From assembly GCA_958009085.1 (NCBI GenBank), contig OY253679.1, positions 620,001-684,000 on the forward strand: 64,000 nt of DNA, read 5' to 3'. Within the stretch, counting starts at the first letter, position 1. Each line of letters starts with the position of its first letter. The DNA is from Protoeuglena noctilucae. Its lineage: Eukaryota. The notes under the pieces were generated by a model. That model saw only the letters and a program-made list of their open reading frames with translations, was not told the origin of the DNA and ran no database searches. The position numbers were made by a program, and so were the translations under genes. Shown here in pieces: positions 2,711-47,181 of the stretch.

Positions 2711-3960
2711 TCACGTGATGTGTTGGGGCTCCGGCAGGTCTTGGAGGACGAGCACCGAGGGCCCGACGAGCGCCTGGAGGCCCGGGGCCAAACCGTGCCA
2801 GAATATGACGAGCCCGCTGCCGCAGAAGGCCACGTAGTTGCATATCTGCTCCTTGACGTACCGCCAGGACGCGTCGTACCCGTACATGGCCTTGCTGTCG
2901 ACCCAGTGGACCACGTGACCGTTCACGAGCGCCGGCACCGTCAGCAGGGCGTCCGGGGTGTAAGCGCAGTTCGCCTGCCTGCGCGTGGCGGTGCCGGGCC
3001 ACGATACCTGGTCACAGCCGCTGCATTGGGTATCGCACACGAGCAGCGGCGGCGTCACGTTCGCCATGCCCCTCGCCTGAGGTCCTCCTCCGTTTTGAAA
3101 GACAGCCCCAGGTTGCGCAGCCGCGCAGCCAGGATGCACTCGTGCTCCCATCCCGCAATCTGGGCGTACTTGGAGGCCCGCTGCGAGTACTTGCGCTCCT
3201 CCAACTGAAAGCGCATGAACTCCTGCATGCCAGAGAGGACCCCCTCCGTGAGTCACGGCAACACTTGCAAGAGAACGGTACGGCTCACGCTCTCCACACA
3301 CCGCGGCCGCTCACGCTGGAGAGGCGATGGAAGTAGGACTCCCACTCGGGTGCCAGCCCCTCTGCCATGAGTTGCAGCAGACACCCGGGGTCCTTCCCGG
3401 CCTCCGTCCATAGCAGCTTCTCGTTCTTGTCGGTCCCACTGGCCAGATAAGGCCGGGCCGCCGACAGCAGGAACTTGAGCACCTGAAACAGCGCAAACGG
3501 CACTGGTTGCGCTGCTTAGGGTCCACGCGCATGGGGCCTGTATGGGGCGTTGGATTACAAGCCGCCCATCGCGGCAGCGACCAAGAGCAGCTGCCACCTT
3601 GAGAGGCCACAGCTTGTACTTCCAGCATATCTGCTCCACGGAGAGGCCCCCCAGAAAGTCGGCCACCGCAACATCCATCAGCCGGTCCAAAGCCTGCGCC
3701 TTGCGGGTCGAGTAGTCGCGCGCTCTGTGCTCCCAGATGGCAACGAGGGCATCCAGTTGCATCCTGCGGAACGCGCGGGCGTTGGGCTGCGTCAGGCCAC
3801 TTGAAATGCCAGCTCTGGTTGTTTGCTGCGGCAGGGTGGGGGCCCCGCACCCCGGGAACGCCCGCAGGATGGCGTCGTAGTTCGGCTGAGACCCCAACGG
3901 TATTCTGTCCAGCCACGCCACGACCGCAGCGACATCAGCGGCCTCCCCCTGCCTCGCCAT
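2711..3960 (-). CDS. CDIN1/C15orf41-like TPD-domain protein (PD-(D/E)xK nuclease fold)
   Basis: Spliced C-terminus GWEHECILAARLRNLGLSFKTEEDLR|QANCAYTPDALLTVPALVNGHVVHWVDSKAMYG..QICNYVAFCGSGLVIFWHG matches the TPD..W(I/V)DSKA..G.VIYW.G pattern; requires GC-AG intron 2979-3076. Confidence 0.75.
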
Positions 3961-4329
3961 CGTCCCCACCCCGAACGGGCGGGCACCCTGTGGCCCCAGG
4001 CTGGTCACAGCACGCGAGTCATGGTACACCCGCCCAATGCCCCCGCAATCGTGCGACTGACGGAAGCTGCCCCGCCATCGACGGTATCTCTTCCAGAGGT
4101 CGACGCCAGGCTCTGGCGTCTCACGTGCGAGGCCCGCTGTCGCGACTCAAGCCGCCCTGCCCTCTCCCTCGGCATCATTTGCGTGGCCACTATCTGCTGC
4201 ACTGGACAGGCTATCCGCAGCGTTTCGCTGACAGCTTCTGAGCCTCGTCGCGTCTCGAGCTCCACGTGCGGCCGGGCACGCGGGTGGATTGGCCGGAGGA
4301 CGGCGGCGTCGGGGATCTAGACCGGGACC

Positions 4330-5575
4330 ATGGCGCGGTATGACCGCGCCATCACGGTCTTCTCGCCGGACGGCCACTTGTGAGGGCGCGCGCGCGAAGG
4401 GCGCACGAGGATGGCTCGCTCCAGATCCCGGCCCTCAAAACGCCCGGCATGTGCGGTGCCAGGCTCCGGTAGACCGAGAGTATCGGCTGGCTGCAGGTTC
4501 CAGGTCGAGTACGCCCTGGAGGCGGTGAAGAAGGGGACACTTGCGGTCGGGCTCAAGGGGAAGGCGAGCCGCGACTCTACTGCAGCCCGCCGCGCACCCA
4601 AGCAGACTGCCTTGGGATGAGAGTGTTCACACGCGTGGGATCTCGCTGTGCGGCCCCGCAGGACGTCGTGGTGCTTGGCATTGAGAAGAAGAGCGCGGCC
4701 CAGCTCCAGGACGCGCGGATCGTGAAGAAGATTGTGAGCATCGACGACCACATCTGCATGGCATTTGCTGGCTTGACGGCGGACGCCCGTGTCCTGGCGG
4801 ACATGGCTCGGGTCGAGGGGCAGAGCTACAGGTGCGCGTGTGCGTCGTGCATGTCCTTTGCTCCGTGCCGCACCATGTCCGCGTCGTTGGTTGTCATCGT
4901 TGCGATGCACGGGACGTCCGCAGGCTCTCGTTCGACGAGCGCGTGGACGTGGAGTACATGGCAAGGTTCATCACAGGGGTGCAGCAGCGCTACACGCAGT
5001 CGGGCGGGCGGCGTCCGTTCGGCATTTCCGCGCTGATCGCCGGCTTCTCTCCGCTCGGCGAACCCTGCCTCTTCCAGACCGACCCCTCGGGCAACTATGC
5101 GGCCTGGAAGGCGAGTCACGCGGGCCGCCTCGCCTCGCTGCACGTAACGGGGTTATCTCTCTGCTGTGAGAGCCGGAACTGAGCCAGTCGATGCGCGCCT
5201 TCCGCTGCAGGCGAACGCCATGGGCCGCAACAGCAAGGCCACGCGGGAATACCTGGAGAAGAACTACGAGCTCTTGGAGGGGCGCGCAGCGGTCAAGCTC
5301 GTGGTCAAGGCTTTGATGGAGACCGTCGAGGTGTCGGGCAAGACGGGTGAGTGGCGAAGCGGCTGATGGTAAGCGATGGGCATCGGTTGGGCCCGGTGCG
5401 CCACGACTGCGAATACCTCGCGTTCGCAGTGGAGCTGGCCATCATGGAGCGGGACCAGCCCCTGCGGATGTTAAAGGACGACGAGGTGGACGTGCTGGCG
5501 AAGGAGATTGAGGCCGAGAAGGCCGCAGCAGATGCGGCCAAGCGCAGGGGCGGGGCGGGATCCTCCGCGCCTTGA
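4330..5575 (+). CDS. PSMA7: 20S proteasome subunit alpha type-7 (alpha4), 6 exons
   Basis: [86 protein letters not shown]. Confidence 0.95.
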
Positions 5576-44419: not shown

Positions 44420-44588
44420 CTTGCCCCCTTCCTGCGTGCGCTTCAGCAACGCTGGAACTTTCGACCATCGGCCCGCGCCCGGGCACCTAGCGGGCGGGTG
44501 CCGGTCCGGTTCGCTCTCGCCAGAACCACCCGTAGCCACCGGCGCCCCGGGCGCCCGCGCCGGCCCAGTCTCCGCATCCCTGAGCAAG

Positions 44589-47181
44589 ATGAGCGCTCTC
44601 ATGGCGGCGGCGAGCGCCCGGGCGGCGCCCGCGCTCCCGACGCAGCGGGGGAGCCTGCGGGGCGCCGCGCTGGCGTCAACGGCGCCGGCCAGGCGGAGGG
44701 ATGGGCGCGGTGTGTGCCGCGTAGTTGCAGCAGACTTTCCGAAGCCGCCGTTTGAGTCGGCCGGCACGTTCCAGGAGGCGGCATCCCTGTCCACGAAACT
44801 GATGAAGGCGCCCCGGCCTTCGGAGAGCAAGGTGGGCCGGCGGGCTCGTCGTGGTTATGGTCATCGTTGCTGCGCCCGCATCCCACCGGCGGCCTGGCGC
44901 TTCTCGCGCATGGATGGCTCGTGGATGCCCGCTGTCGCTCAGCGCAGTCCCGGGCCGCCCGCAGAAGGTGGTCATCATCGGTGCGGGTCTGGCGGGTCTG
45001 GCCTGCGCCAAGTACTTGTCGGATGCGGGACACAAGCCCATCTTGCTGGAGGGGCGGGACGTGCTGGGGGGCAAGGTACAGGCCTCCGAGGGACGGCCAG
45101 CCGGCTTGCCCTCGAACGCTGCCCGCATGCCCGTCGGTAGATTTTCAGGAGCGTGGCGAATCTCAACGAATGTTTACCCCCCGACCCCCCTGCGTCTCGC
45201 TGGGCGGAGCTCAACCCTTGCAGGAGTGTGCGGATTTCACCCACGCCCCGGCGCCTCTCTGTGCCACTTGCCCTCGATATATCGCGCTCATTCTCTGCAT
45301 TCGGTGTCAGTCTGCACTTGGGCGATATCGTGAGACTAGCTCTTCGCGCGAGCGAGCCGGGCCTCCCCCTCGCAGGTGGCGGCGTGGAAGGACGAGGACG
45401 GGGACTGGTACGAGACCGGCCTGCACATTTTCTTTGGGGCATATCCGAATATGATGAACGTTTTCAAGGAGCTGGGGATCGAGGACCGCCTGCAGGTGCC
45501 GCGGGCCACCCATCACGGGCGCTGTGGGTACATCTGCTGCCCGCGGCGGCGCGCGACGGCGGCCGCGCCCGTCCCGCCCGCAGTGGAAGGTGCACTCGAT
45601 GATTTTCTCGATGGCCAACCAGGGCAAGCCCGGGGAGTTCTCGCGCTTCGACTTCCCGGAGCTCCCGGCGCCCTGGAACGGCATCATCGCCATCCTCCGC
45701 AACAACGACATGCTGACGTGGCCGGAGAAGATCCGCTTCGCGATCGGTCTCCTGCCCGCGATCATCCTGGGGCAGAAGTACGTGGAGGAGCAGGACAAGC
45801 TGACGGTGACGGAGTGGATGCGCAAGCAGGGGGTCCCGGACCGCGTGAACGACGAGGTCTTCATCGCCATGGCCAAGGCCCTCAACTTCATCGATCCGGA
45901 CGATCTGTCCATGACAGGCGAGCTGCGAGACGCCGCGCGCCAATGACGGGTCCACTGCCGCCGCCGTGCTCGCTAGCTCACCGCATCAGTGCCTGCCCGC
46001 GCAGTGGTCCTCACGGCGCTCAACCGGTTCCTGCAAGAGCAGCACGGGTCCAAGATGGCTTTCCTGGACGGTGCGCCCCCGGAGCGCCTGTGCCAGCCCA
46101 TGGTGGACCATTTCACGGGTGAGGGCAGCAGCAGCGCGCAGGGGCAGGGCACGCAGGCACGAGGCGGGATGCCTGCGCAGGGGTGCCAGGTTGGGCTGCA
46201 GACGGCGGGTCGTCCGGAATGGCCGGCGTGAGCCAAAGCGTTTCGTTCAGTCACACGCGCGTGTGCATGACTCTGATGGCAATGCGAGGTGGGCCCTGCA
46301 GCTGCGTCTCTGCCTCCGCCCGCGCAGCGAGGGGCGGGGAGGTGCGGATGAACGCGCGGGTGAAGGAGATCGTGCTGAACGAGGACGGCAGCGTGAAGGA
46401 GCTGGCGCTGACGGACGGGACGAGCGTCACGGGGGACCTCTACGTGTCGGCCATGCCCGTCGACATCATGAAGCTGTTGTGCCCGGACCGTTGGCGCGCG
46501 ATGCCCTACTTCCAGCAGCTGGAGGGCCTCGAGGGCATCCCCGTGATCAACATCCACATCTGGTTCGACAAGAAGCTCAGCACCGTGGACCACCTCCTCT
46601 TCTCCCGGTCGCCGCTGCTGTCCGTGTACGCCGACATGTCCACCACGTGCCGCGAGTACGCCGACGACGAGCGGTCGATGCTGGAGCTCGTCTTTGCCCC
46701 CGCCAAGGACTGGATCGGACGCTCGGACCAGGACATCATCGACGCGACCATGAAAGAGCTCGAGCGGCTCTTCCTCAGCGAGATCCGCGCCGACCAGTCC
46801 CTCGCCAAGATCCGCAAGTACAAGGTCGTCAAGACGCCGCGGTCCGTCTACGCCGCCACGGCCGGCCGCGAGGACTACCGCCCCACGCAGCGCTCGCCGA
46901 TCTCCAACTTCTTCCTGTCCGGCGACTACACCAAGCAGAAGTACCTGGCCAGCATGGAGGGGGCCATCCTGTCGGGTGAGGCAGGCTGCCGTGGCGCCCC
47001 TGCCCAGCGTGATGTGCGATGCACGGCGGGGGTGCGTCGGGGCCCGCCGCGAGCTCGCGCGTGCCCGTCGACGCCCGCAGGCAAGCTGGCCGCCGAGTGC
47101 ATCGTCGATGACGTGAACTACAAGGGGGGCAAGGCGCCCCAGGCAGCCACCCGGGAGCCGGCCATGGCTGGGAGCGCGTGA
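44589..47181 (+). CDS. PDS: 15-cis-phytoene desaturase (plastid), 7 exons
   Basis: [98 protein letters not shown]. Confidence 0.97.

Follow-up and report, generated by a model that had tools for sequence, protein, structure and literature searches.

Abundant GC-AG introns with a strict AG|GC(G/A)AG donor in a GC-rich window of Protoeuglena noctilucae DNA

The stretch of Protoeuglena noctilucae DNA analysed here (64 kb of contig OY253679.1, assembly GCA_958009085.1, positions 620,001 to 684,000; hereafter the window, by which we mean the whole of it) raises the question of whether introns that begin with GC instead of GT are truly as common in its genes as they appear to be and, if so, what made them common. 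A preliminary description of this DNA had listed sixteen GC-AG introns with a strict AG|GC(G/A)AG donor, where the bar marks the exon-intron boundary, and that list holds in full: upon inspection of the sequence the AG|GC(G/A)AG...AG signals were found at 16/16 introns, with GCGAG in fourteen and GCAAG in two, the preceding exon ending in AAG eleven times and in CAG five times, and our own gene finder recovered 16/16 base for base. Our analysis confirms that the listed GC-AG introns are real. We consider it probable that they are ordinary U2-type introns with C at position +2, and that GC-biased substitution is tolerated at this position only where pairing of the donor with U1 small nuclear RNA (snRNA) is otherwise complete.

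The coding, intron, donor and acceptor models of the gene finder were trained with GT introns only, after which every G-N donor was permitted at the same cost. Under these settings 126 introns were predicted (82 GT, 36 GC, 6 GG and 2 GA), and the presence of eight GG or GA decoys means that part of the GC calls must be false as well; the false ones proved to be those in a weak donor context. At the sixteen listed introns, the GC-AG pair always scored best by signals learnt from GT introns, with donor scores of 1.9-4.8 versus at most 1.8 for the GT alternatives. The length is not a multiple of three in 11/16, and four of the remaining five contain an in-frame stop, so that a single one of the sixteen (31026-31181, in the photolyase gene) is open in frame on read-through. 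As to the evidence for the individual junctions, four are supported by an exact spliced protein, three by gapless homologue alignment, six by tiling of Pfam profiles, two by partial evidence of this kind, and one by its signals and stop codons.

Evidence at the transcript level comes from the class II photolyase gene, whose four GC-AG introns are as follows:

30386..30513, minus strand: GC-AG intron of the class II photolyase gene, AAG|GCGAGG; exact match to spliced P0121
30673..30869, minus strand: GC-AG intron of the photolyase gene, AAG|GCGAGG; P0121 and homologue scan
31026..31181, minus strand: GC-AG intron of the photolyase gene, AAG|GCGAGG, 156 nt; P0121 and homologue scan
31775..31886, minus strand: GC-AG intron of the photolyase gene, AAG|GCGAGG; P0121

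P0121 is a public protein of 497 residues (JGI, Logan) that was found with a photolyase exon as query and lies on three contigs, the longest of 1945 nt. Excising five GT-AG and the four GC-AG introns from the window yields P0121 residue for residue (497/497), followed by a stop. Because the photolyase coding sequence occupies 2707 nt of the genome, a span that exceeds the 1945-nt contig, the contig encoding P0121 must be without introns, and the four photolyase GC-AG introns are proven at the transcript level. In addition, no GT-AG alternative within 30 nt of 30673..30869 is in frame. Retention of 31026-31181 would add 52 residues and keep the frame, which makes this intron unique among the sixteen, and being open in frame it owes its support to the transcript-derived protein. 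All four GC donors of this gene read AAG|GCGAGG, and its five GT donors include CGG|, CGA| and GTGCGC contexts. Relatives of the photolyase were found at 80 metagenome loci with 48-61% identity; only five of these gave more than one tblastn segment, so that the set could not serve for a comparison of orthologous introns.

The other twelve listed introns are distributed over nine genes:

21719..21862, minus strand: GC-AG intron of RIB72/EFHC (DM10), AAG|GCAAGG; gapless homologue alignment
42401..42600, minus strand: GC-AG intron of omega-3 fatty acid desaturase (FAD), CAG|GCAAGA; 8 homologues
45918..46004, plus strand: GC-AG intron of phytoene desaturase (PDS), CAG|GCGAGC; tblastn gap and homologue scan
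2979..3076, minus strand: GC-AG intron of a TPD/CDIN1-like gene, CAG|GCGAGG; Pfam tiling, best signal choice
4564..4661, plus strand: GC-AG intron of a proteasome alpha subunit (PSMA7), AAG|GCGAGC; Pfam tiling
5111..5210, plus strand: GC-AG intron of the same proteasome alpha subunit (PSMA7), AAG|GCGAGT; Pfam tiling
34033..34118, plus strand: GC-AG intron of a CobW/ZNG1-family GTPase, AAG|GCGAGG; cobW profile abuts within one position
35001..35097, plus strand: GC-AG intron of CobW, CAG|GCGAGC; partial, CobW_C tiling within about 3 residues
36145..36256, plus strand: GC-AG intron of eL18 (RPL18), AAG|GCGAGC; junction falls exactly between profile positions 45 and 46
36416..36517, plus strand: GC-AG intron of eL18 (RPL18), AAG|GCGAGC, acceptor TAG; profile abuts within 2, in-frame stop inside
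23868..24072, plus strand: GC-AG intron of a cytochrome P450, CAG|GCGAGT; partial support
15298..15375, plus strand: GC-AG intron of PRP18, AAG|GCGAGG; signal and stop codons only

For each of FAD, PDS and RIB72, eight homologues were used to score every in-frame shift of donor and acceptor by up to 30 nt. Top scores went to the listed boundaries or to slides that leave the peptide unchanged, the only splice-like boundary among such ties being the GC-AG one, and GT-AG alternatives were either absent or lower-scoring. The FAD junction scored 355.5 against 297.2 for the best GT-AG alternative, and that of RIB72 190.4 against 179.4, the RIB72 sequence ...PRWAALDAK|VLRFFGYFKE... crossing the junction without a gap relative to four homologues; in PDS, where the tblastn gap of 29 residues corresponds to 87 nt, the listed boundaries gave the top score and no GT-AG alternative exists. 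Pfam profiles likewise run across the junctions of the CDIN1-like gene, where PF14811 position 55 ends the upstream exon, position 60 falls on downstream residue 4 and four residues fit between, and of the proteasome subunit. In the latter, position 14 of the Proteasome profile opens the exon downstream of 4564..4661, with 13 upstream-exon residues lying beyond the Proteasome_A_N match, while at 5111..5210 the final upstream residue is profile position 133 and the first downstream residue position 135. At 35001..35097 the CobW_C profile matches at 2-49 in the upstream exon and, after an exon of 13 residues, resumes at 68-93. The exons flanking the P450 intron are in different frames with roughly collinear Pfam coordinates, and the upstream exon aligns with LUT5 through its last-but-one residue, while the first 50 residues downstream of the intron gave no solved-structure match, which leaves the downstream side unsupported. 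Two in-frame stops lie within the PRP18 intron, whose donor scored 4.7 as opposed to at most 0.3 for the GT alternatives; no homology spans this junction, and the exon after it had no solved-structure match.

Having established that these introns exist, how frequent are they? Counts were based on 18 Pfam-recognised genes, with the GT denominator taken from our own gene models. These genes hold 84 predicted introns, 64 with GT donors, 17 with GC in the strong context and 3 with GC in other contexts. The 17 are the sixteen listed introns and one that the earlier list did not contain:

54329..54521, minus strand: additional GC-AG intron of PIGA, GAG|GCGAGG; predicted

The PIGA intron separates a Glyco_transf_4 exon from one with the PIGA domain, contains in-frame stops and is not a multiple of three in length; the first of these exons matched distant mannosyltransferases only, and the second gave no solved-structure match. 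Of the three weak-context calls, the one at 34302-34441 (plus strand, CobW) is an artefact, the actual intron being the GT-AG intron 34327-34421 (CAG|GTGGGA), which restores the NKTD motif and joins the two parts of the cobW profile at 145|147; another spans an assembly gap (200 N at 59986-60185, within an RPAP3-like TPR gene) that forces a false intron prediction there, and the third, 14870-14952, is a prediction only. Strong-context GC-AG introns therefore make up 17 of 82-84 predicted introns, or about 21% (95% interval for 17/82 in this window, 13-31%), which exceeds the preliminary estimate of more than a tenth. The 31 introns predicted outside the 18 genes (18 GT and 13 GC, including two in the strong context) were excluded as unsupported. 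A filter neutral with respect to donor context, which admitted introns no longer than 500 whose acceptor score was not negative and whose flanking exons had coding scores of 5 or more, retained 55 GT, 20 GC (18 of them in the strong context) and 3 GG introns. Besides the PIGA intron, one further candidate joins the listed sixteen:

17074..17251, minus strand: candidate GC-AG intron of a gene without family match, CAG|GCAAGC, acceptor GAAG; prediction only

Across the window the motif AGGCRAG occurs 51 times versus 24.25 +/- 4.65 in shuffled sequence, a count that was reached in 0/100 shuffles, and AGGTRAG occurs 26 times versus 10.48 +/- 3.44.

The two classes of donors differ sharply in the positions surrounding the variable one:

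GC donors (n=18): A-2 100%, G-1 100%, +3 G 83% / A 17%, A+4 100%, G+5 100%
GT donors (n=55): A-2 44%, G-1 93%, +3 G 98%, A+4 58%, G+5 91%

That GT donors tolerate varied contexts had been pointed out before, and the frequencies at A-2 and A+4 bear this out. Within the 18 genes, the AG|GYRAG context contains 17 GC and 9 GT donors, whereas elsewhere there are 3 doubtful GC and 55 GT donors (Fisher p = 9e-9). At position -3, A or C is found in 17/18 GC donors, and G in 5/11 strong-context GT donors, so the compensation may extend to -3. Strong-context donors of either kind lie mostly between codons (16/18 GC and 10/11 GT), a phase bias that arises from the need for a NAG codon and not from the C. 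As to base composition, C occupies +2 in 17/26 donors with the full consensus (0.65, 95% interval 0.44-0.83), and the interiors of the introns have a C/(C+T) of 0.63, with a GC/(GC+GT) of 0.68 and a GCG/(GCG+GTG) of 0.56. In other words, C appears in otherwise complete donors at the frequency with which intron DNA supplies it, as expected under the earlier suggestion that GC-biased mutation turns T into C at +2 wherever the donor is otherwise strong. As a separate observation, the consensus of the GT donors is GTGAG (for instance at 32039-32165 and 31515-31661), and A at +3 is nearly absent from them, as opposed to 3/18 GC donors, which read GCAAG.

The introns have the features of the U2-type GC-AG class, namely GC...AG termini in 16/16, and in the two candidates, and a compensated donor context in 18/18, with a median length of 112 nt compared to 127 nt for GT introns. 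A U12-type identity was considered and rejected, as a branch motif resembling TCCTTAAC was found in 0/18 GC introns, and no donor is of the ATCC type, all being GCGAG or GCAAG. The 5' end of U1 snRNA is complementary to the donor consensus (A/C)AG|GT(A/G)AGT, and from their own consensus it appears that the GC introns would be spliced by the U2-dependent spliceosome through pairing with U1. We infer from this a mechanism in which GT donors change to GC. Compositional bias in a genome of 67% G+C would drive T to C at donor position +2; the resulting C would be nearly harmless where A-2, G-1, G+1, G or A at +3, A+4 and G+5 still pair with U1, and selection would remove it from donors of weaker context, where T would be kept. 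What the window contains is about one GC-AG intron in five, each with an AG|GC(G/A)AG donor. If correct, this would offer a simple quantitative picture in which base composition and U1 pairing jointly set the share of GC-AG introns, with GC confined to full-consensus donors and occurring there at the frequency given by intron composition.

How does the window compare with what is known of other genomes? In published surveys, U2-type GC-AG introns are described as the main non-canonical intron class (PMC2490688, citing Burset 2000 and Thanaraj and Clark 2001), the donors of which keep closer to the rest of the (A/C)AG|G-(A/G)AGT consensus and so compensate for the C (PMC2490688), and in most eukaryotes they account for under 1-1.3% of introns (PMC2490688; PMC3033335; PMC6310983). 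The introns described here have the same termini, the tighter donor consensus and lengths like those of GT introns, and differ in amounting to about 21% of this window. The preliminary description had taken this pattern as unusual for any lineage, but it has already been published for several GC-rich algae, where GC-AG abundance follows high genomic G+C (PMC3033335; PMC4028052; bioRxiv 10.1101/2024.10.30.620910). Reported shares are 7.65% in Chlorella NC64A at 67.1% G+C, 22.2% in Micromonas pusilla and 39.6% in Aureococcus anophagefferens (PMC3033335), 56-60% in Emiliania huxleyi (PMC4028052) and 14-17% in pelagophytes (bioRxiv 10.1101/2024.10.30.620910). With these algae the window has in common a high G+C content, an abundance of GC-AG introns with canonical AG acceptors and, putatively, composition as the cause, and it is a further case of this known phenomenon, to which it adds a green-alga-like lineage. 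It differs in that the nearest named relatives of its proteins are chlorophycean, and the two chlorophyceans surveyed in 2011, C. reinhardtii and V. carteri, have only 2.0% and 2.4%, respectively (PMC3033335); no paper that came up in our literature search reports a comparable share for a named chlorophycean. That GC donors keep to a single context, and that their share matches neutral composition, was observed in this window; neither point is met with in the accessible parts of the literature on GC-AG-rich algae.

The GC-rich green alga Micromonas pusilla is also known for introner elements, and has in common with the window many short introns. An introner-type repeated family was rejected as an explanation for our introns, as an all-against-all comparison of 104 predicted introns gave best matches of 12-17 nt without enrichment among GC introns, and the GC introns, unlike introner elements, share no sequence beyond their splice signals.

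Several points weigh against the explanation by composition and U1 pairing, or at least limit its reach. Transcript-level proof covers only 4/16 junctions, the GT introns in the denominator were predicted by our own gene finder and homology-checked only in part, and the strong-context class was defined once the GC donors were already known. The genome as a whole may differ from a single 64-kb window, and the change between GT and GC is not polarised. Furthermore, C. reinhardtii and V. carteri, of somewhat lower G+C, stay at 2.0-2.4%, and Micromonas RCC299, with 64% G+C, has 2.7% (PMC3033335), so that composition alone does not fully predict the share. It is conceivable, although we regard it as doubtful, that in this lineage U and C are selectively neutral at +2 in donors whose remaining seven positions match U1; the GC share of 0.65 sits at the mutational equilibrium of 0.63 seen in intron DNA. 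Were this true, the spliceosome of this organism would have lost its normal bias towards U at +2 in the full-match context, a lineage-specific change in 5' splice-site proofreading, beyond composition alone, could underlie the loss, and neutrality would account for a share about three times as high as in Chlorella NC64A at equal G+C.

Among alternatives to composition and U1 pairing, an altered reader of the 5' splice site, accepting either C or U at +2 through a change in the U1 snRNA base opposite +2, the U6 ACAGAGA box, U5 loop 1 or a protein of the U1-C or Prp8 type, is in our opinion unlikely. The excess over Chlorella NC64A (7.65% at the same G+C; PMC3033335) speaks for it, and so does the level of C in strong contexts, which equals neutral composition as though T gave no advantage; Iwata and Gotoh, moreover, proposed RNA modification or proteins of the U1 small nuclear ribonucleoprotein for Aureococcus and M. 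pusilla (PMC3033335). A reader indifferent to +2, however, should admit GC in weak contexts too, and what we see is a perfect context demanded of GC donors and not of GT donors; in addition, the U1 5' ends of A. anophagefferens, M. pusilla and Micromonas RCC299 are reported as canonical in the same source (PMC3033335).

That selection keeps the GC donors because their weakness serves regulated or alternative splicing, a role proposed for GC-AG introns of animals, seems to us quite improbable. GC donors have been tied to alternative splicing in animals and Arabidopsis (PMC2490688), and retention of photolyase intron 31026-31181 would preserve the frame, but in 15/16 introns retention breaks the frame or meets a stop, the host genes are functionally unrelated housekeeping genes (eL18, the proteasome subunit, PDS and CobW among them), and the share of GC is equal to that of neutral composition. 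That the introns are an artefact of faulty gene models or of assembly base errors at +2, as the invention of weak-context GC introns by our gene finder (e.g. 34302-34441) and its eight GG/GA decoys among 126 predictions might suggest, has next to nothing left in its favour given that an exact public protein of 497 residues requires the four photolyase introns, homologues and Pfam tiling back nine others, several junctions have no in-frame GT-AG alternative, and sixteen independent errors at one and the same position are implausible.

These results have direct implications for annotation. A gene finder restricted to GT donors would break about one fifth of the introns in this window, including those of eL18, the proteasome subunit, PDS and photolyase, while one that freely allows GC donors invents false introns, as ours did in CobW; restricting GC donors to AG|GC(G/A)AG would cure both problems.

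As for the window itself, G+C is 67.3% over the 64 kb and ranges from 64 to 71% across all 4-kb blocks. The closest named relatives of its proteins, in protein searches with FAD and photolyase exons, are chlorophycean green algae, with 90% identity of one FAD exon to Chlamydomonas leiostraca and 63% identity of a photolyase exon to Edaphochlamys. A search with PDS gave a Diacronema/Pavlova match, but a haptophyte affinity was rejected, as that search was limited to proteins over 617 aa and the FAD and photolyase matches are green algal. An Rfam scan of the 64-kb window returned 0 families and no snRNA gene. Two regions, 7400-13700 and 37000-40000, have low coding scores and no convincing gene, and 17 long open reading frames at 6.7-14.2 kb and 37-40.6 kb had no Pfam match; within the 9.8-12.5 kb stretch several AG|GCGAG sites are nonetheless present despite the low coding scores around them. 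A public protein of 262 residues, P0364, is identical to the single RIB72 exon 20535-21272 (minus strand) plus a few flanking residues, and probably stems from bacterial-style gene calling applied to this organism's genomic DNA. Finally, the photolyase (minus strand) and CobW (plus strand) genes stand head to head, with about 200 base pairs (33372-33582) separating their predicted first exons.

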